From an uncultured Eubacteriales bacterium (lineage in GTDB: Bacteria > Bacillota > Clostridia > Christensenellales > CALVMC01), in NCBI GenBank assembly GCA_949296455.1, contig CASFOZ010000003.1, forward strand, positions 83,767 through 147,766: DNA of 64,000 bases. Reading direction: 5' to 3'. The notes under the pieces are model-generated. The model had not been told where the DNA came from. It saw nothing but the letters and a program-made list of their open reading frames with translations, and ran no database searches. Both the position numbers and the translations under genes were made by a program. Below are positions 291 to 48,544 of this stretch, one piece after another. Each line of letters starts with the position of its first letter. Position 1 is the first letter of the stretch.

Positions 291-397
291 ATTTACCTCC
301 GATTTCATTAATTCTTTTGTAAATATTTCCTTTCAAAGGAACTTTTCTTTCGTTAAGTATTTTATTTTAAATTAAACCCGATAATAATCGAAATTAT

Positions 398-2308
398 TTA
401 ACCGCTCGCTTTTATCAAAACAACGCTGTTTACGCTTATTTCGCTCTGAGGCGCCGGAAATTGATAAGAAATAGTTCCGATATCCCCGTCAAGCTCATAT
501 TGCAAACCTAACTCTTTTAATTTTAAAATAGCCTGCGTAATACTCAATCCTCTTAAATCAGGCATAACGATTTTTTTACCTAAATTTGCAAGGTCTTCAT
601 CGGTATATACTGCTTCTATATTTTTATAAGCAAAAATATTTTTAAATATTTCCCCGACGTATGGCGCAGCCACTATACTGCCGTAATAGGCACCGTTGCT
701 AGGTTCGTCAACAATCATAAGTGCTATATATTGAGGATTATCGGCAGGTGCAAATCCTATAAAAGACGATATGTATTTTCCCTGTGCGATAACTCCGTTT
801 TCGTATTTTTGCGCTGTACCCGTTTTCCCGCCTATCCTATAACCTTCTACATATGCGTTTTTACCGCCACCGTTTTTTACAACCCCTTCTAATATGGTCC
901 GCATTGTTTCGCTGGTTTTTGCGCTTACGGTAGAATTCCTTATAGCAGGCGAATTTTTATACGCTACTTTCGAATTGCTTGTAATTTCGCTCATTATGTA
1001 AGGCGTCATTAAATTTCCGCCGTTTATAACCGAAGCTGCCGCCGTAATAAGTTCGATAGGAGTAACCGCAATAGCCTGACCGAAACCTATTCTTGCAAGG
1101 TCTACGGTTTTTACCGCACTTTCGTCTATAACTATACCGCTCGCTTCGCCTATTGCGTCTATGCCGGTTTTTGAACCTATTCCGAATTTTTTAAGATATT
1201 CGTAAAAAGTTCTTGTTCCGACAGTCTGTGCAATATCCATAAAAAGGCAGTTGCAGCTGTTTTCTACACCCTCGCTGAAAGTCTGACTTCCGTGCCCGAT
1301 TGTTCTCCAACATTTTATTCTTTGTCCGTCCACAATACGGTAACCGGGACAGTACACACTGTGATTAAGATTAAATTTACCGCTGTCAAGTCCTATCGCA
1401 GAAGTCAGAATTTTAAAAGTCGAACCCGGTTCGTATGCGTCGGAAATAATTGTGTTTCTCGACCCTTCGAAAAGTAATTCAAGATTATCTCTCGGTAAAT
1501 TATTCAAATCGAAACTCGGAGCGCTTGCAAGTGCAAGTATTTCTCCGGTATTAGGATTCATAATAATACATTTTGCGCTTTTCGCATTGTGCGCTTCGAG
1601 TGCTGTTTTAACGGCATTTTCGGCAAAACTCTGAATATAATAATCGATTGTAAGAGTTGCGTTCATTCCGTCAATGGCAGGTAAATATGTAGTGGTACTC
1701 CCGTCCAACTCCTTTCCTACAAGGTCTGTCTCGGTTAACGCCTTTCCGTTAACGCCTTTAAGATAATCGTTATAATATTGTTCTATACCCGACTGTCCTA
1801 CCCCGTCGCTGCTGGTAAAACCTAACACCTGTGTCAAAAAATCACCGTAAACGTAATAACGGTTAATATTCTGCGAGAAATATATACCTGCTAAATTTTT
1901 ATCCGCAATTTCCTGCATTACGCTTTTTTCTATCTTTTTTGCTATTGTTACTTCCGATACACCGGTTTTATTTACCTTTTCCCATATTTTATCGTAATCT
2001 GTATTTAATGCGGTAGCAAACAAATTGGCGACGGCCGAACGGTCTTCTATGGCGTTAGGTCTTATATAAACATCGTAAAGAGTGGAACTGTCTGCAAGAA
2101 CCACTCCGTTTCTGTCGGTTATTAAGCCTCTTTTTGCAGTCAGCGGGAGGTCACGCATCCATTGTTCCGCAGCTTTTACCTGCAAAGCTTCGGCTTGAAA
2201 AATTTGCAGATAAATAAGTCTTCCAAAAACCGCCGCAAATAAAAAAGTTATTAATATTACTATTATTAATAACCTTTTTCTTATGTTAAATTGGGAGAAA
2301 TTATGCAA
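398..2308 (-). CDS. spoVD: Class B penicillin-binding protein, SpoVD/FtsI type, with C-terminal PASTA domain
   Basis: N-terminal TM, RGLITDRNG motif, SxxK (STFK), SCN, KTGTAQ, C-terminal MPDLRGLS PASTA repeat; dcw position. Confidence 0.85.
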   Translation of the reverse strand: MHNFSQFNIRKRLLIIVILITFLFAAVFGRLIYLQIFQAEALQVKAAEQWMRDLPLTAKRGLITDRNGVVLADSSTLYDVYIRPNAIEDRSAVANLFATALNTDYDKIWEKVNKTGVSEVTIAKKIEKSVMQEIADKNLAGIYFSQNINRYYVYGDFLTQVLGFTSSDGVGQSGIEQYYNDYLKGVNGKALTETDLVGKELDGSTTTYLPAIDGMNATLTIDYYIQSFAENAVKTALEAHNAKSAKCIIMNPNTGEILALASAPSFDLNNLPRDNLELLFEGSRNTIISDAYEPGSTFKILTSAIGLDSGKFNLNHSVYCPGYRIVDGQRIKCWRTIGHGSQTFSEGVENSCNCLFMDIAQTVGTRTFYEYLKKFGIGSKTGIDAIGEASGIVIDESAVKTVDLARIGFGQAIAVTPIELITAAASVINGGNLMTPYIMSEITSNSKVAYKNSPAIRNSTVSAKTSETMRTILEGVVKNGGGKNAYVEGYRIGGKTGTAQKYENGVIAQGKYISSFIGFAPADNPQYIALMIVDEPSNGAYYGSIVAAPYVGEIFKNIFAYKNIEAVYTDEDLANLGKKIVMPDLRGLSITQAILKLKELGLQYELDGDIGTISYQFPAPQSEISVNSVVLIKASG

Positions 2309-2317
2309 TTTTAAGTT

Positions 2318-2944
2318 TTACCCTCCTACAACGCTTTCAATAAACTTGCAAAAACCGTCGAACCAGTCTAAGTTACTTTCAGCGCTGCTTTGTTCCTGGG
2401 TAGGTTGAACGCTTTCAACCGTTTGGCTCTCGCCGTTAACGGTCGCCACCATCATATCTTCCAGATTTGTAGGAATTGCCGGAAGACTTTCAATAACCTG
2501 TGCGTCGACATACTGATTTTGAGGTACAACAGTAGTTCCCGCAAAAGAAGTTGAAATAATAACCGTTAACAATATAGCCACCACAAGAATGTAAATCAGC
2601 AGCATAGCAAACTTTTGAACATTGCTGATATTTTTATCGTTTACCGAAGAAACGGATTTCTTTTGTAAACGAAAGTCCTGCAAAGATTTACTGTTTGTAC
2701 TAGTATATGTGCGTTCTTGCGGTATATTCCTTTGAAGCCTGTCATATAAATCGCTTTCATAATCGGTCATTCTTTTTTCCGAACCGACCGAACTTTCATA
2801 GCCGTAAGTGGAATCTGTATCGTATTTATCGGAAATATCGTTTTCGTTATCGTAATACGCATCGAAATTATTGAGCGAATTAAGATTGGCATATCCGCCA
2901 TATCTTTCCTGCTCGGTATTGATTTTTCTTCTCGTCATTACCAT
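2318..2944 (-). CDS. Single-pass membrane protein in the ftsL position
   Basis: Between rsmH and the PBP gene; one hydrophobic segment (FAMLLIYILVVAILLTVII); G-rich SD upstream. Confidence 0.6.
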   Translation of the reverse strand: MVMTRRKINTEQERYGGYANLNSLNNFDAYYDNENDISDKYDTDSTYGYESSVGSEKRMTDYESDLYDRLQRNIPQERTYTSTNSKSLQDFRLQKKSVSSVNDKNISNVQKFAMLLIYILVVAILLTVIISTSFAGTTVVPQNQYVDAQVIESLPAIPTNLEDMMVATVNGESQTVESVQPTQEQSSAESNLDWFDGFCKFIESVVGG

Positions 2945-2948
2945 AAAT

Positions 2949-3890
2949 TTATTCCCCCTTGATTATTTGAGCTATTCTTAATTTTGCGCTTTGCGCTCTT
3001 TTATTTTCCGTACATTCCCTTACGGAAGGAAGCAAAGGTTTTTTTGTTATTATTTCTATTTCCTTTCTTTTATTACAAACGCACACCGGTGCGTTTTTAT
3101 CACATATACAATTACATTCAAGATATTTAAAAGCATTTTTAACGGCTCTGTCTTCCAAAGAATGAAAACTTATAATACACAGTCTTGCTTTGTTTTTCAT
3201 TTGTCTTGCTATACCGATAATAAAATCTTCAAGACCTTTAAGTTCGCCGTTTACTTCTATTCTTACGGCTTGGAATACCTTTTTACAAGGATTACCAGCT
3301 TTTCTCTTTACCGATTCCGGTAAACATTTATCTATTATCGCTGCAAGTTCAGCCGTAGTATCTATGCTTTTAATTTTTCTATATTCAATAATTTTAGAAG
3401 CTATTTTTTTTGCAAAACTTTCTTCCCCGTATTCATAAAAGATTTTAACGAGTTCCTCTTTTGAATATTCGTTTATAACTTCTTTTGCCGAAAGACTTTG
3501 TCTTCTATCCATTCTCATATCCAAAGGAGCGTCTTTGATATATGAAAAACCTCTTTCAGCATTATCAATCTGATAAGACGAAATTCCCAAATCGATAAGT
3601 ACGCCGTCCGGTTCTATACCGTTATCCTTTAAATAAGTTAAAGAATTTTTGAAATCGTCTCTTATAAAAGTTATTTTATCCGAATATTTTTCAAGGTGCT
3701 TTTTGCAATAATCTATTGCATCTCCGTCTTTATCGTAACCTATCAATCTTCCTTTTTCGTCAAGTTTTTTAAGGATTTCACTGCTGTGTCCTCCACCGCC
3801 TAAAGTTAAATCGAGATAGGTTCCGTCAGGTTTTATATTAAGACCGTCGATACATTCTTTCAGCAGAACCGGTTTGTGTGAAAACTCCAT
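2949..3890 (-). CDS. rsmH: 16S rRNA m4C1402 methyltransferase RsmH (MraW)
   Basis: HKPVLL, DLTLGGGGHS, DLGISS, LDMRMD, FQAVRIEVN, ISFHSLED, SAKLR motifs. Confidence 0.97.
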   Translation of the reverse strand: MEFSHKPVLLKECIDGLNIKPDGTYLDLTLGGGGHSSEILKKLDEKGRLIGYDKDGDAIDYCKKHLEKYSDKITFIRDDFKNSLTYLKDNGIEPDGVLIDLGISSYQIDNAERGFSYIKDAPLDMRMDRRQSLSAKEVINEYSKEELVKIFYEYGEESFAKKIASKIIEYRKIKSIDTTAELAAIIDKCLPESVKRKAGNPCKKVFQAVRIEVNGELKGLEDFIIGIARQMKNKARLCIISFHSLEDRAVKNAFKYLECNCICDKNAPVCVCNKRKEIEIITKKPLLPSVRECTENKRAQSAKLRIAQIIKGE

Positions 3891-41448: not shown

Positions 41449-41477
41449 TTGACAGGTATTGCATACTATGATAATAT
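41449..41477 (+). promoter_or_regulatory. SigA promoter of the lysine operon
   Basis: TTGACA-17-TAATAT with TG extension, just upstream of the riboswitch. Confidence 0.65.
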
Positions 41478-41483
41478 GAAAAT

Positions 41484-41655
41484 GCTGATAGAGGAGCGGT
41501 AGGCATCAGTAGCTTATGCGGAAAGCCTTGCAAGAAAGGCGCATAACGCAAAAGGGCCGATACCGCCGAAATAAAACGCTTCTTGACGGCGTTTTGTTGG
41601 TTGAAACGGCTAATACCTTTCAACTGTCATCTTTAATAGATGGAGGACTATGAGC
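41484..41655 (+). ncRNA. Lysine riboswitch (L-box)
   Basis: ATAGAGGAGCG...CAGTA...AAAGGG...CGCCGAA...TTGG...ACTGTC...GGAGGACTAT; upstream of asd-dapA-dapB. Confidence 0.9.
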
Positions 41656-41677
41656 TAATTTAGATGTAATCGAAATT

Positions 41678-41708
41678 AGTGCATTTCCTTATCGGTAATG
41701 CACTTTTT
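41678..41708 (+). terminator. Lysine riboswitch terminator
   Basis: agtgcatt...aatgcact followed by ttttt. Confidence 0.7.
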
Positions 41709-41727
41709 ATATATTTGGAGGATTAAA

Positions 41728-42726
41728 ATGAAGCAGTACGACATCGCCGTAGTAGGCGCAACGGGAATGGTTGGCAACAAATTTTTGGAAGTTTTGGAAG
41801 AGAGAAAACTTCCCGTAAAAAATTACTATTTATTTGCATCTAAAAAAAGCGCAGGAAAAGTAATAAATTTTATGGGAAAACCCCATACCGTACTCGAATT
41901 AAATAAAGAGAATATATTAAGTCATAAAGCGGATTTTGCATTATTTTCGGCAGGAGGCGGAACTTCAAAAGAATTTGCCCCTATATTTGCCGAATACGGT
42001 TGTATTGTCATAGACAATTCGAGTCAATGGAGAATGGATAAAAATGTTCCTTTGGTAGTTCCCGAAGTTAATCCGGAAGATATTAAAAACAATAAAGGCA
42101 TAATAGCAAATCCTAACTGTTCAACTATACAGGCAATGCTACCCTTAAAAGCGCTTGACGATAAATATAAAATCAAAAGAATAGTTTACAGCACCTATCA
42201 AGCAGTATCGGGAGCAGGAGTTGCAGGATATAACGACCTTAAAAACGGTATTGAGAATATACCTCCGCAGAAATTCCCCTATCCTATATTTAATAACATA
42301 CTTCCTCATATCGATGTATTTCTGGATAACGGATACACGAAAGAAGAAGAAAAAATGATAAACGAAACAAGAAAGATATTGCACAATGACAATTTGAGAA
42401 TAACTGCAACTACGGTCAGAGTTCCCGTATTCGATTGTCACAGCGAATCTATAAATCTCGAATTTGAAAAAGATTGCACTTTGGAAGGAATTAAAGAAGC
42501 TCTTTCGAAAATGAAAAATCTTATTATTGTAGACGAGCCGGGACAAAATAAATATCCTATGCCGGTAAACTGCAAGAACAGAGACGAAGTTTTCGTAGGA
42601 AGAATACGACTCGATAAAAGCGTTAAATCGGGCTGCAATCTATGGGTAGTTGCCGACAATATCAGAAAAGGAGCCGCAACAAACGCAGTACAGATTGTAG
42701 AAGAACTTATTAAAAACAAGGAGTAA
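41728..42726 (+). CDS. asd: Aspartate-semialdehyde dehydrogenase
   Basis: VGATGMVG, DNSS, NPNCST, YQAVSGAG, RVPV, DNIRKGAA; start ATG 41728 after GGAGG. Confidence 0.97.
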   Translation: MKQYDIAVVGATGMVGNKFLEVLEERKLPVKNYYLFASKKSAGKVINFMGKPHTVLELNKENILSHKADFALFSAGGGTSKEFAPIFAEYGCIVIDNSSQWRMDKNVPLVVPEVNPEDIKNNKGIIANPNCSTIQAMLPLKALDDKYKIKRIVYSTYQAVSGAGVAGYNDLKNGIENIPPQKFPYPIFNNILPHIDVFLDNGYTKEEEKMINETRKILHNDNLRITATTVRVPVFDCHSESINLEFEKDCTLEGIKEALSKMKNLIIVDEPGQNKYPMPVNCKNRDEVFVGRIRLDKSVKSGCNLWVVADNIRKGAATNAVQIVEELIKNKE

Positions 42727-42731
42727 ACGAT

Positions 42732-43616
42732 ATGAATAAAAAACCTTTGTTTCAAGGTAGCGCAGTGGCTTTAATCACTCCGTTTACGGAAACGGGAATT
42801 GATTTCAAAGCCCTTGAAAATTTATTGGAATTTCAGATAAAAAACAAAACCGACGCTATCGTAGTTTGCGGAACGACGGGCGAACCTGCGACAATGACGG
42901 CAGAAGAGAAAAAAGAAGTAATTAAATTCTGCATAGAAAAAATAAACAAGCGTGTGACCGTTATTGTAGGAACGGGAACAAACAACACGAAAACGGCTAT
43001 TGAAAATTCTGTTTTTGCGGAAAAAGCAGGAGCCGACGGACTACTTGCCGTCACGCCCTACTATAATAAGTGCACGCAAAAAGGATTGGAAGAATATTAT
43101 CTTTCCATAGCTGACAGCGTTAATATACCCGTCATCGCATATAATGTTCCCGGAAGAACGGGCGTTAATATACTTCCTAAAACTATGGAAAAAATTTCAG
43201 AGCACCGCAATATAAACGGAATAAAGGAAGCTTCGGCTAATATTGACCAGATAACCGATACGGCAACCCGTATCAAAGATAAATGCTATTTATATTCCGG
43301 GGACGACGCAGTAGTTCTCCCTATTATGGCTCTTGGCGGTAAAGGAGTTATAAGCGTTGCGGCGAATGTAATCCCTGAAAAGATGAACCGCCTTACTCAT
43401 TTTGCTTTACAAAACAACTACGAAAAAGCCAAAGAAATGCAGCTTGAACTTTATCCCTTTATCAAAGCTCTTTTTGTAGAAGTTAATCCTATACCCGCTA
43501 AATATGTTTTATCGAAAATGGGTCTTTGTAAAAATATTTTAAGAGAACCTTTAACCACTTTAGAAAAAACAAACGAAAGTCTTTTGGACGGTTTTATAAA
43601 AGAATTTATAAAATAA
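42732..43616 (+). CDS. dapA: 4-hydroxy-tetrahydrodipicolinate synthase
   Basis: GTTGE, PYYNK, YNVPGRT, GIKEAS, NPIP. Confidence 0.97.
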   Translation: MNKKPLFQGSAVALITPFTETGIDFKALENLLEFQIKNKTDAIVVCGTTGEPATMTAEEKKEVIKFCIEKINKRVTVIVGTGTNNTKTAIENSVFAEKAGADGLLAVTPYYNKCTQKGLEEYYLSIADSVNIPVIAYNVPGRTGVNILPKTMEKISEHRNINGIKEASANIDQITDTATRIKDKCYLYSGDDAVVLPIMALGGKGVISVAANVIPEKMNRLTHFALQNNYEKAKEMQLELYPFIKALFVEVNPIPAKYVLSKMGLCKNILREPLTTLEKTNESLLDGFIKEFIK

Positions 43617-43627
43617 TTTAGGTGCAT

Positions 43628-44827
43628 ATGTTGAAAATTATAATAAACGGAATTAACGGAAAAATAGGTAGAGTTCTTTACTCTATAACTGAAAAGTGCG
43701 ACGATATAACCGTTGTTGCGGGAATCGATAAATTTATCGCAAACGATTTAAATATCACTCAATATAAATCTTTAAGCGACTGCAAGGAAGAAGCCGATGT
43801 AATAATCGATTTTTCAAGACCCGATGCCACGGGAGAGCTTTTAAATTTCGCTCTTGAAAAAAGGATTCCTCTTGTAATCGCAACAACCGGTCAAAGCCCG
43901 GAACAGCAATCGGCAATACTTCTCGCTTCAAAAGATATTCCTATTTTTCAGGCAAGCAATATGTCGCTCGGTATTAACCTTTTAATTGAATTATCTAAAA
44001 ATGCCGGCAGATTTTTAGGTACAAGCTATGATATTGAAATAATAGAACAGCATCACAATCAAAAGGTAGATGCTCCAAGCGGTACCGCCCTTACAATAGC
44101 AAACGCAATCAACAACGAAGTATATGCGGGTAAAAAATACTTTAAAAACGGAAGAGAAAATAAAAACGAAAAAAGAAAGCCTGAAGAAATAGGTATTCAC
44201 GCAATAAGAGGCGGTAATATTGTCGGGAAACACAGTGTAATGTTTATCGGAAACGATGAAATAATAGATATTTCACACGAAGCGCAAAGCAGACAAGTTT
44301 TTGCATACGGCGCTTTAAAGGCAGCTCGTTTCATTTGCGATAAAGCGCCGGGATATTACGGAATGAAAGATATTATAGGAAAAGAATATTCTGTAACAAC
44401 GGTTTTTGCAGAGCCCTCCACTGCCTTCATTTCCCTAAAAAACGAAAGTTCGGAATTCATTTCAGAAGTCTTAGACGAACTTGATAAAGGAAACGTCAAT
44501 ATTGATATGATAGCAAAAACTCTAAACGAAAACAATAACAGCGATATAACATTCACTCTTCCCGAAAAAGACTATGAAACCTCCTGTAAAATGCTTAAAA
44601 ACAAAGGATTCAATTTTGCTTCAAAAAAAGGTCTTTCTAAAATAACTGTTGAAGGACTCGGTATGGAACACTCTTCCGGTATAGCAAAAAAAGTTTTAAA
44701 TATATTTAAAAATTTAAAAATAGAAATTTATGCTATAACAACTTCGAAAAATAAAATTACCTGTCTGTCCGACGAACGGCACGAAGAAAAAGTTTTGAAA
44801 GCATTAAAAGAAGCTTTTAATATTTAA
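43628..44827 (+). CDS. dapB: 4-hydroxy-tetrahydrodipicolinate reductase fused to C-terminal tandem ACT domains
   Basis: DFSRP, ATTG, ASNMSLG, EQHHNQKVDAPSGTA, IRGGNIVGKH in the first ~250 aa; ~150-aa extension resembling an aspartokinase regulatory region. Confidence 0.9.
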   Translation: MLKIIINGINGKIGRVLYSITEKCDDITVVAGIDKFIANDLNITQYKSLSDCKEEADVIIDFSRPDATGELLNFALEKRIPLVIATTGQSPEQQSAILLASKDIPIFQASNMSLGINLLIELSKNAGRFLGTSYDIEIIEQHHNQKVDAPSGTALTIANAINNEVYAGKKYFKNGRENKNEKRKPEEIGIHAIRGGNIVGKHSVMFIGNDEIIDISHEAQSRQVFAYGALKAARFICDKAPGYYGMKDIIGKEYSVTTVFAEPSTAFISLKNESSEFISEVLDELDKGNVNIDMIAKTLNENNNSDITFTLPEKDYETSCKMLKNKGFNFASKKGLSKITVEGLGMEHSSGIAKKVLNIFKNLKIEIYAITTSKNKITCLSDERHEEKVLKALKEAFNI

Positions 44828-44842
44828 CTTTTCACCTAAGCG

Positions 44843-45484
44843 ATGAAGAAACATAAAAATATTTTAATAACGATAATTTCGGCGATTCTTGCTGTTGTAA
44901 CCTTTTTCGTTTATCTTAAAGAAGACGAATTAGTTTATATATACATAGGAGTCGCCTTTGTTTTCGGTTCTATTTATTTTGCGTACAGATATATTTTACA
45001 GTTAAAAGAAGAAGCAAAGAAGAAATTAAAAAACAATCCCGAAATAAAAATAAAAAAAATCAAAGACAAAGAAACAGAATCAAAAAGCGAAAAACTATCC
45101 AATCGATTTGAAAAAATAGCCATTCGCTACCCTGACGGAAAAGTGCGCTACGAAGTTGCCGCAAAAACCAAAGCGCCGCAAGGATATTGTTTTTATTCCG
45201 ACGACAGCCAAACCTATCATACTCATGCCGATTGCTATGTTAACTGGAAGCCCGAATACAGAAAAAGTCTGCTTATGTGGAACTGTATCAAAACAGAATC
45301 CGCAATAAAATACGGATACAAAAAATGCAAATTTTGTGAAAAGGCGGACAGTTACGAAAAAGAATTATCGGAAAACCAAATTAAATGCAATATAATAAAT
45401 GAACCTTCAAATATTAATAGCAAAGAACCCTTATCCGATAATAACGAGAAAACCGAATACGGTGATATTACTTCGGAAAATTAA
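44843..45484 (+). CDS. Membrane protein with C-terminal putative metal-binding domain (YH..C...GY..C..C, Ada-like)
   Basis: Two N-terminal TM helices; YHTHADC...AIKYGYKKCKFC. Confidence 0.55.
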   Translation: MKKHKNILITIISAILAVVTFFVYLKEDELVYIYIGVAFVFGSIYFAYRYILQLKEEAKKKLKNNPEIKIKKIKDKETESKSEKLSNRFEKIAIRYPDGKVRYEVAAKTKAPQGYCFYSDDSQTYHTHADCYVNWKPEYRKSLLMWNCIKTESAIKYGYKKCKFCEKADSYEKELSENQIKCNIINEPSNINSKEPLSDNNEKTEYGDITSEN

Positions 45485-47221: not shown

Positions 47222-48544
47222 TTATTTTTTTATAAAGAACTGATTATAAATTGCTTCGATAGCCTTTTCGTAATCGGCGTCGGCAACGGCAACGATTATG
47301 TTAAGCTCGCTGCTTCCCTGGTCAATCATTTTAACGTTTATATCGGCATCGGACAAAGCCTTGAAAAGTTTTGCTGCGGTACCCGGCTTATAAGCCATTC
47401 CGTGTCCGACTGTTGCAATTAAAGCAATACCGTTTGTAAGTTCTATATGGTCGGGATTTACCGTATGGGTTATCTTTTGAATTACGGCATCGCTCTTTCC
47501 TATAAGTTCGCTTTCTGCGACAATGACGCAAAGTGTGTCTATTCCGGACGGCATATGCTCGAAAGAAATTTCATATTCTTCGAGTATCGTAAGTACCTTT
47601 CTTGCAAAACCCAATTCGCTGTTCATCATTGATTTTTCTATGGAAATCAACGCAAAATTCTTTTTTCCCGCAATACCAGTAATAAGGCTTCCGTTATCTT
47701 TTTCGCTAATTTCGGGAAGTATCATCGTTCCTGAATTTTCCGGTTCGAAAGTATTTCGTATATTAATCGGAATCCCCGCCGATTTAAGCGGAAATATCGA
47801 TTCGGGATGCAAAACGTTTGCTCCCATATAGGAAAGTTCTCTGAGTTCTTTATATGATAATTTTTCTATTCTTTTGGGATTTTTTACGATGCGTGGGTCG
47901 GTACACATAAATCCGTTTACATCGGTCCAGTTCTCGTATACGGAAGCATTTACTGCTTTTGCGATAATTGCCCCGGTTACATCTGAACCTCCCCTTGAAA
48001 AAGTCTTAACCGTTCCCGTAATGTCTGCTCCGTAGAATCCCGGAACAACCGCATTATCGAGATTACATAATACGGCAGCGGTTTTTGCATTTGTTTTTTC
48101 TTCGTCAAGCTGTCCTTTTTCATTGAAAAAAACTATATCTTTAGCGTCTATAAAATTATAGCCTAAATATTCGCTTAAAATTCTTGCAGAAAGATATTCG
48201 CCTCTTGATGCGGCATATTCCATAGTTCTGTTCAAATAAATTCCTTTTTCGACTTCATTAAGAACTGAGTCGATATCGAAATTCATTTTTAAATCGGATA
48301 CGATTTTCTTAAACCTTAACTTGATTTTTTCAAAGTATTCGGAAATATCTCCGCTAATCTGCAATTCGTGTGCACAAGAGTAAAGCAAATCGGTAACTTT
48401 AATATCATCGCCGCTTCTTTTGCCGGGAGCGGAAACAACGACAAATCTTCTTTCTTTATCGCTTTTAATTATATTACAAACTTTTTTAATGGATTCAGCA
48501 TCGGCCATAGATGTCCCGCCGAACTTAACAACTTTAATATCCAT
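47222..48544 (-). CDS. lysC: Aspartate kinase with two C-terminal ACT domains
   Basis: KFGGTS, VVSAPGKR, SRGE, FSRGGSD, TDVNG, ELSYMGA. Confidence 0.92.
   Translation of the reverse strand: MDIKVVKFGGTSMADAESIKKVCNIIKSDKERRFVVVSAPGKRSGDDIKVTDLLYSCAHELQISGDISEYFEKIKLRFKKIVSDLKMNFDIDSVLNEVEKGIYLNRTMEYAASRGEYLSARILSEYLGYNFIDAKDIVFFNEKGQLDEEKTNAKTAAVLCNLDNAVVPGFYGADITGTVKTFSRGGSDVTGAIIAKAVNASVYENWTDVNGFMCTDPRIVKNPKRIEKLSYKELRELSYMGANVLHPESIFPLKSAGIPINIRNTFEPENSGTMILPEISEKDNGSLITGIAGKKNFALISIEKSMMNSELGFARKVLTILEEYEISFEHMPSGIDTLCVIVAESELIGKSDAVIQKITHTVNPDHIELTNGIALIATVGHGMAYKPGTAAKLFKALSDADINVKMIDQGSSELNIIVAVADADYEKAIEAIYNQFFIKK

Follow-up and report, generated by a model that had tools for sequence, protein, structure and literature searches.

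In the synthesis of lysine and diaminopimelate, feedback control is assigned to aspartokinase and to DapA (4-hydroxy-tetrahydrodipicolinate synthase), and the reductase DapB is, to our knowledge, not allosterically regulated. Elsewhere in amino-acid synthesis, the Rossmann-fold oxidoreductases SerA (D-3-phosphoglycerate dehydrogenase, PGDH) and homoserine dehydrogenase possess a C-terminal ACT domain that senses the end product, and acetohydroxyacid synthase has a dissociable regulatory subunit, IlvN/IlvH, which is a separately encoded ACT protein. The present report concerns a gene in which dapB continues in frame into a tandem ACT module of the kind found in the regulatory (beta) subunit of aspartokinases. 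The gene lies in a stretch of 64,000 nucleotides, referred to below as the window, from an uncultured Eubacteriales bacterium of the order Christensenellales (assembly GCA_949296455.1, contig CASFOZ010000003.1, positions 83,767 to 147,766 of the forward strand). The best explanation, in which moderate confidence can be placed when it is taken as a whole, is that its product is a catalytically intact 4-hydroxy-tetrahydrodipicolinate reductase with a putative amino-acid-sensing regulatory module acting on DapB.

The dapB::ACT fusion gene and its product

The fusion gene occupies positions 43628..44827 of the forward strand (399 amino acids plus the stop codon), as defined from the listing of open reading frames (ORFs), Pfam and NCBIfam. 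The ORF listing gives a single frame, 43622..44827 (+), of 401 amino acids when begun at a GTG; the ATG at 43628 gives 399 amino acids and agrees with the N-termini of homologues (MI/LxIII.G.NG). Residues 1-252 (43628..44383, +) hold the NAD(P)H-binding and substrate/tetramerisation domains of DapB, recognised by Pfam, NCBIfam and Foldseek, and residues 253-399 (44384..44824, +) hold the tandem ACT module of aspartokinase regulatory (beta-subunit) type, recognised by Pfam, NCBIfam and sequence matches to the Protein Data Bank (PDB). A first-pass annotation of this DNA had described a complete DapB extended in frame by about 150 residues that resemble the tandem ACT domains of the LysC beta subunit; both parts of that description hold, and all of the peptide strings that it quoted are found in the translation.

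In the DapB part, Pfam matched DapB_N (PF01113) to residues 3-112 (E 1.2e-25) and DapB_C (PF05173) to residues 115-250 (E 4.6e-46), and the NCBIfam dapB equivalog TIGR00036 aligned residues 1-251 to positions 1-270 of its 270 with 215.1 bits, against a cut-off of 122. Both the nucleotide loop, rich in glycine, and the substrate motif E-x-HH-x-x-K-x-DAPSGTA are present. Across 100 fused sequences there is no variation at residues G8, G11, G14, E140, H142, H143, K146, D148, P150, S151, G152, T153 and A154; the three glycines and the E140-A154 motif residues are the catalytic residues of DapB. The genome of the window's organism (1.38 Mb, 95% complete, 19 contigs) has one DapB, and the only DapB_C match in it is the fusion gene, which argues that the fusion protein is the working DapB of this genome.

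In the tail, ACT_9 matched two stretches, the better at residues 339-397, with 57.7 bits, and ACT_7 matched residues 332-395 with 36.6 bits, both above the cut-off of 27. The aspartate kinase model NF005154 covers residues 252-398 with its positions 249-403 of 407 (E 7.9e-21), a match that lies far under that model's cut-off of 376 bits, and a sequence search paired the tail with the PDB aspartokinase chains 3l76, 5yei, 2re1 and 2dtj (E 1e-16 to 2e-8). Among the 100 fused sequences, the most conserved tail columns are D293, I295, G343, G345, M346, G351 and T371-S373, which fall in the NIDM, GxGM and TTSE motifs common to solved aspartokinase regulatory domains. Identification of the fusion protein itself as an aspartokinase (TIGR00657 or NF005154) was considered and ruled out: Pfam found no match to AA_kinase (PF00696), and the aspartate kinase models scored 14-75 bits, under every one of their cut-offs of 209-832.

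Predicted structure

AlphaFold2 returned models with a predicted local distance difference test score (pLDDT) of 89.7 and a predicted template modelling score (pTM) of 0.70 from 32 sequences, and of 92.3 and 0.76, respectively, from 100 sequences. The tail forms two ACT-like units in these models (pLDDT 84-97), for which DSSP assigned strands (E) and helices (H) at E258-273, H275-287, E293-299, E305-312, H313-325 and E331-342 in the first stretch and at H352-362, E369-372, E376-382 and H383-396 in the second. Solved DapB chains rank top in a Foldseek search, with TM-scores of 0.73-0.87 (normalised to target), and these matches run no further than about column 270 of the alignment. The first aspartokinase comes at rank 45, and the aspartokinase matches superpose poorly (TM about 0.35, root-mean-square deviation about 20 Å). 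No solved chain matched the DapB and ACT parts well together by structure in Foldseek, and none covered the two by sequence. Between the M246 and T257 columns, where the last helix of DapB gives way to the first strand of the ACT module, 90 of the 100 sequences have a connector of exactly 10 residues; this near-fixed length is weak evidence that the two parts are held in a set geometry and not on a flexible tether. Prediction of a complex between the DapB part (1-252) and the tail (253-399) gave a score of 0.00, which counts neither for nor against an interaction.

Conservation and spread of the fused form

The architecture DapB_N, DapB_C and ACT_9 is found in 119 of the best 120 homologues among 7986 matches (384-421 amino acids, 40-92% identity), and such proteins, where named in the database, are called '4-hydroxy-tetrahydrodipicolinate reductase'. 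The single exception (P0028, 417 amino acids) combines DapB_N and DapB_C with PF13380 and PF14114. Separately, DapB lies within open frames of 436-446 amino acids lacking a match to the ACT tail at G335:C1:66479-67231 and G206:C29:1221-1973, and together with P0028 these may be other, different DapB fusions.

Within Clostridia, an uninterrupted fused frame, defined as an unbroken match from residue 1 to at least residue 392, was found in 23 of 399 scored genomes, that of the window included. A species-level scan, in which one genome stood for each species, searched for two peptide patterns and gave 80 loci; it favours fused forms because the patterns were built from fused tails only, and an alignment of fused and split forms together offered no conserved stretch usable for a scan of related loci. 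These 80 comprise 75 complete DapB-ACT ORFs, two fused ORFs cut by a contig end, two that start inside the tail and one with a broken DapB. By record title, 60 belong to Bacillota, 14 to Spirochaetota, three to Bacteroidota, two to Thermodesulfobacteriota and one to Myxococcota, with the reservation that taxon labels of metagenome bins are possibly wrong. Among the Bacillota are Christensenellales, isolates of Caldicoprobacter (such as Caldicoprobacter oshimai, L068), Mahella and Oscillospiraceae, some fused loci are on contigs labelled Desulfobacterales, and the fused frame is also present in isolates of Caldicoprobacter and Pleomorphochaeta. On a contig labelled as a Sphaerochaetaceae metagenome-assembled genome (L094), the fused gene is interrupted and a 229-amino-acid frame holds the end of DapB and the tail, which could represent a pseudogene or a sequencing error. 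Three loci labelled 'uncultured Bacteroidaceae' (L069, L079, L081) carry fused genes that group tightly with those of the window's order in both ACT and DapB trees, and their bins are likely to be mislabelled or contaminated.

The window's assembly is of metagenome type and in 19 contigs, which raises the question of whether an assembly error or frameshift has joined dapB to a separate ACT gene. The probability of such an artefact is negligible: the same frame is read in the nearest relative (L033), with 370 of 399 residues identical (93%), in P0001, a cluster of 13 sequences at 92% identity, in 22 further genomes of the sample, and in the 75 complete scan loci, with the isolates among them. 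Moreover, comparison with L033 gave 16 non-synonymous and 48 synonymous differences in the tail, with a ratio of non-synonymous to synonymous rates (dN/dS) of 0.053, and a dN/dS of 0.063 in the DapB part. Judged from this comparison, the tail is under purifying selection in the window's lineage. The fusion is read as neither an assembly artefact nor a decaying remnant, the latter because of the tail dN/dS and because the module is kept across hundreds of lineages. A search for sequencing runs listed six, none of them recorded as RNA; one may derive from the source sample, and three others from that study contain 83-94% of the sampled words.

The split form: dapB followed by a stand-alone ACT gene

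In 19 further genomes of the 399, dapB ends at a stop codon and the ACT module follows in the same frame, the match running from residue 1 to about 395 with 1-3 in-frame stops. In all 14 split loci inspected, dapB (about 255 amino acids) is followed within 3-60 nucleotides by a separate tandem-ACT gene of 145-156 amino acids, which has a purine-rich, Shine-Dalgarno-like stretch and an ATG of its own; in a fifteenth inspected locus (G027), DapB was present and no ACT match was found. In NCBIfam, the stand-alone proteins correspond to the beta-subunit region of aspartate kinase (model positions from about 251 to 405, out of 407), with scores under all cut-offs. The first Clostridia scan could reveal same-frame split cases only, and the next 40 'DapB-only' rows were then fetched; in eight of these 40 genomes, an ACT gene lies directly downstream of dapB in another frame. 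The Clostridia sample, with 40 of the remaining DapB-positive genomes inspected, thus holds 23 fused and at least 27 split cases. A profile search of the 40 whole genomes found small ACT ORFs scoring 186-207 bits only beside dapB, in the eight places already known, and every other strong match to the module profile was in an aspartokinase-sized frame (401-430 amino acids). A second, weakly related type of stand-alone ACT ORF, in 160-amino-acid frames that score 49-58 bits, is found in one genus by the module-profile search, away from dapB (G007:C1:309587-310009, G139:C7:11128-11550, G246:C69:2604-3020).

Outside Clostridia, a phylum-wide sample of 401 genomes contained one genus with the split form (six genomes), in which the operon reads asd-dapA-dapB-ACT. 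Stand-alone tandem-ACT genes downstream of dapB were catalogued at loci L018-L031, L113, L114, L118, L133, L135, L139, L140, L143 and L173. Free modules are abundant, with 1971 proteins at E <= 1e-10 when an alignment was used as query; a word-index search with the window's tail alone, which misses divergent free modules, gave a single match, a 166-amino-acid protein of 89% identity. The names listed for free modules are 'ACT domain-containing protein', 'amino acid-binding ACT protein', 'aspartokinase' and 'aspartate kinase', which bears on annotation. One of the free modules (P0182) is from a cultured organism with the split form, [Clostridium] cellulosi.

A stop codon between dapB and a stand-alone ACT gene had been put forward as an observation that would speak against the fusion. 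It is found in distant relatives only, where the ACT gene has its own translation signals, and close relatives are fused. Rather than refuting the fusion, the split form in distant relatives stands to it in a Rosetta-stone relation, which, on sequence grounds, links DapB and the module functionally.

Origin of the module

The fusion junction coincides with the boundary between kinase and regulatory regions of alpha2beta2-type aspartokinases (model position about 249 of 407). Against the hidden Markov model (HMM) of the module, the closest aspartokinase ACT regions score 159-165 bits and ordinary ones 108-124 bits. The aspartokinases with these closest regions sit in dap operons, arranged dapB-dapH-lysC in G211 and similarly in G182; further ones occur as asd-lysC in G049 and G325. 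At the first two loci (L175 in G211, positions 293-3084, and L176 in G182), dapB is followed by a 251-amino-acid hexapeptide-repeat gene (dapH-like) and then by a 401-amino-acid aspartokinase, an arrangement that may resemble the ancestral one. Origin of the module by loss of the kinase domain from a dap-operon lysC is plausible. The suggestion that the tail is the remnant of a deleted lysC kinase gene can therefore be retained as an account of its origin, given the position of the junction and the closest lysC genes; as a description of a decaying remnant it conflicts with the low tail dN/dS and the wide conservation.

Three trees were built, all by a quick method, and several branches in them are long, that of the window's tail among them. 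The first ACT-module tree had 120 rows (77 fused modules, 22 split ones and 21 ACT regions from aspartokinases; of L007-L017, the near-duplicates L008, L009, L016 and L017 were omitted) and placed fused and split modules together on one side of a branch, with all aspartokinases on the other (SH-aLRT 92). The split modules formed one clade (99, starred) nested within the fused ones. In the second tree, to which five aspartokinases with unusually high module scores were added and from which six aspartokinase rows of <130 amino acids were removed, the fused (97, starred) and split (99, starred) modules each formed one group, set jointly against the aspartokinases (92). A single change between fused and split would be enough for either tree; its direction differs, as split modules are nested in fused ones in the first and the two are sister groups in the second. 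In the DapB tree (93 rows, for which 38 of the 76 further fused rows were picked randomly), the fused DapBs keep together: a set of 45 rows (99, starred) comprises all 39 fused rows and six DapB-only rows.

Proposed role of the module and alternative explanations

In the proposed mechanism, the C-terminal helix of DapB would lead over the short connector (about 10 residues) to a complete tandem-ACT module, whose ancestry would lie in the beta-subunit region of alpha2beta2-type aspartokinases. By analogy with aspartokinase regulatory domains, the tails of two protomers in the DapB oligomer would pair and form amino-acid-binding sites at the ACT interfaces. The effector would be an end product of the aspartate family (lysine, threonine or meso-diaminopimelate) whose binding alters DapB activity, the likely route being that the tail restrains the hinge movement of the attached NAD(P)H domain. 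The outcome would be fast, post-translational feedback at step four of the pathway, added to transcriptional control by the riboswitch, and in split lineages the module would be a regulatory subunit that can dissociate. A broader proposal, which is tentative and which we rate at somewhat under an even chance, is that the DapB-linked ACT modules, fused and free, form one family of regulatory subunits and turn DapB into an allosteric checkpoint, that this checkpoint arose through a single capture of an aspartokinase beta module and was retained because of what it does to DapB, and that in spore formers it may also divide the DapA product between diaminopimelate/lysine and dipicolinate.

Several observations weigh against regulation of DapB by the module. 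The majority of DapB enzymes function with no ACT module, and the operon is already under lysine control at the RNA level through its riboswitch. The window's tail departs from the family consensus at five of the 22 columns with a conservation of 85% or more (S296A, S308T, E374K, T375N, A389V) and sits on a long branch in both ACT-module trees, so that its putative effector site may be altered or shifted. The branch that parts DapB-linked modules from aspartokinases has a support of 92, which is not starred. In addition, the DapBs of split loci are interleaved with DapB-only ones in the DapB tree, and because the split label needs nine changes there, at least four of them forced by starred branches, the ACT gene appears to have been lost repeatedly in split lineages, which suggests that it is dispensable. 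Finally, of the 42 genomes examined that have a fused or split module, 36 also encode a ~400-amino-acid aspartokinase of alpha2beta2 type, which leaves room for a role of the module with that enzyme elsewhere.

The repeated loss, the sufficiency of plain DapB in most bacteria and the substituted columns of the window's tail would all fit a module without any allosteric role, one that stabilises DapB, changes its oligomeric state or binds an amino acid with no effect on catalysis. We consider such a role improbable. The glycine and aspartate motifs of ligand-type ACT domains are near-invariant in 100 sequences that share 36-50% identity, which is rare for structural appendages; the tail is constrained, as its dN/dS indicates; and the upkeep of the module as a separately translated gene is hard to explain for a mere stabiliser.

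Alternatively, the module, fused or free, might still be an aspartokinase beta subunit that pairs with the regulatory domain of an alpha chain, and which either tethers DapB to aspartokinase, so that the two enzymes form a complex with a single allosteric unit in common, or adjoins dapB through operon history only. In keeping with this, it is homologous to the beta region over its full length (about 249 to 405 of the 407 model positions), the aspartokinase ACT regions most similar to it are those of dap operons, an alpha2beta2-type enzyme accompanies it in most of the genomes, and excerpts of PMC8690038 describe the beta chains of alpha2beta2 enzymes as products of in-frame overlapping genes. 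This explanation is nevertheless unlikely. The alpha2beta2-type aspartokinases of these genomes all bear ACT regions of their own (open frames of at least 400 amino acids), and the stand-alone gene was only ever beside dapB, never beside an aspartokinase gene, in the 40 genomes searched. Moreover, six of the 42 genomes have only the long class I type, namely that of the window (G000), three others of its order (G009, G248, G195), G152 and G307; the tail is thus kept by the window's genome and three of its order without an alpha2beta2-type enzyme, and it is under selection in the window's lineage. The tail of G009 retains the consensus motifs.

The window's genome has four amino-acid-kinase genes, three of which are ArgB, PyrH and ProB-like. 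The remaining one, at 47222..48544 on the reverse strand, encodes an aspartokinase of 440 amino acids with AA_kinase and ACT domains (535 bits for NF006540, whose cut-off is 434) and is the sole aspartokinase of the genome; it begins 2395 bases beyond the fusion stop codon, in accordance with the earlier report of a separate, full aspartokinase with its own ACT domains about 2.4 kb away on the other strand. Its best solved relative is 3tvi (E 5.4e-150), and by this similarity it is assigned to the class I homodimeric type. In the 3tvi enzyme, ACT1 and ACT2 pair with their counterparts in the homodimer, according to excerpts of PMC4142519. No alpha2beta2-type aspartokinase was found in this 95% complete genome, and the role of a functional beta subunit is accordingly unlikely for the tail there. 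For the same reason, the idea that the tail scaffolds an aspartokinase is disfavoured in this genome. The evidence favours DapB as the target, because the module is kept and constrained without its ancestral partner and is always beside or within dapB.

A further possibility is that the module is a flux-partitioning sensor, which in spore formers shuts DapB and diverts flux to dipicolinate, or which regulates DapA or Asd. The window's organism is probably a spore former, as its genome has Spo0A_C, SpoIVA and SpoVAD, and the operon order asd-dapA-dapB::ACT is conserved. The best DpaA score in the genome is 75.5 bits against a cut-off of 319.65, that is, none above the cut-off. Spirochaetota and Thermodesulfobacteriota are known as non-spore-formers, and 14 and two of the 80 scan loci, respectively, carry these labels; because the fusion is also present on contigs labelled Spirochaetota and Desulfobacterales, a sporulation-specific role cannot be general. 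Nothing indicates DapA or Asd as the target. This explanation is regarded as quite unlikely, and the proposed feedback on DapB is preferred. Elsewhere in the same genome, outside the window, there is a full-length Spo0A (274-amino-acid frame, C1), and two short frames of 109 and 115 amino acids (G000:C7:74535-74828 and G000:C3:20265-20567) hold only the Spo0A C-terminal domain, with 122 and 65 bits.

Operon and neighbouring genes

The fusion gene is the last of the operon asd-dapA-dapB::ACT, which is headed by a lysine riboswitch aptamer at 41481..41658 (+), matched by RF00168 over the entire model (1-182 of 182) with 92.4 bits, where the gathering score is 30. Just upstream lies a sigma-70-like promoter candidate at 41449..41477 (+), with TTGACA, 17 nucleotides and TAATAT, with TG, found by consensus scan (10 of 12 matches); it is a weak candidate, as the region has 17 such sites against a shuffle mean of 14.9. 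The gene asd, for aspartate-semialdehyde dehydrogenase, is at 41698..42726 (+; Semialdhyde_dh E 3.3e-35, Semialdhyde_dhC E 1.9e-47), and its true start may be an internal ATG 10 codons in (MKQYD...). It is followed by dapA at 42732..43616 (+; DHDPS E 1.5e-84). The run of asd, dapA and dapB under a lysine riboswitch, as given in the first-pass annotation, is thereby confirmed.

This setting is shared by many relatives. The gene dapA lies <200 nucleotides upstream of the fused gene in 56 of 69 fused loci, asd is upstream in 43 of the 69, and a lysine riboswitch was found in at least nine of the 19 fused loci scanned, a figure that is a floor, since several loci end before the region of interest. 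Downstream, a 213-amino-acid ORF of no known family (44843..45484, +; Pfam matches sub-threshold only) begins 16 nucleotides past the fusion stop codon. It has a hydrophobic N-terminus and a cysteine-rich middle. A site scan of the region found no terminator-like site between the two genes, and the ORF is possibly co-transcribed with dapB::ACT.

Comparison with known systems

A full-text literature search, with subscription journals and InterPro outside its scope, found no description of a DapB with an ACT domain, and the excerpts of PMC11477304 and PMC6262375 contain nothing on one. If the proposed role is correct, an extra control point would exist at the committed reductive step in many Clostridia and on some contigs labelled Spirochaetota. 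The DapB step supplies lysine and the diaminopimelate of peptidoglycan, and in spore formers it competes with dipicolinate synthesis. The conserved DapB-ACT design hints at unrecognised control in the synthesis of lysine and cell-wall precursors. In addition, the fused and split forms offer natural material on the transfer of an allosteric module between enzymes.

The closest described relative of the module is the beta region of alpha2beta2 aspartokinase (LysC; 2dtj, 3aaw, 5yei, 2re1, 3l76), to which the whole module is homologous (E 1e-16 to 2e-8). The two have in common the NIDM, GxGM and (I/T)TSE motifs and the starting boundary at about position 249 of 407, and the free module, at 145-156 amino acids, is the size of an aspartokinase beta subunit. 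Unlike LysC beta, the module is joined to, or encoded beside, DapB rather than an amino-acid-kinase domain, forms its own group in the trees and persists in genomes that have no alpha2beta2-type aspartokinase. Canonical DapB (TIGR00036; 1arz, 5tem, 3qy9) corresponds to residues 1-252, which score above the equivalog cut-off, share the same motifs and superpose with TM-scores of 0.73-0.87; the solved DapB chains (228-310 amino acids) match residues only up to 252, and none has an ACT module.

SerA and homoserine dehydrogenase follow the same design, by analogy only, as their folds and families differ and each chain has a single ACT domain; the PGDH structure is given in excerpts of PMC4142519 as the first of an ACT domain. 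IlvN/IlvH may be regarded as an analogue of the split form, from a different ACT lineage and with a different partner enzyme. Both part families and the design of an oxidoreductase with an ACT domain are already known. The combination of DapB with the ACT module can be seen in public databases, entered simply as DapB, and no paper found in the literature search describes it; the split form is a new observation of the present analysis.

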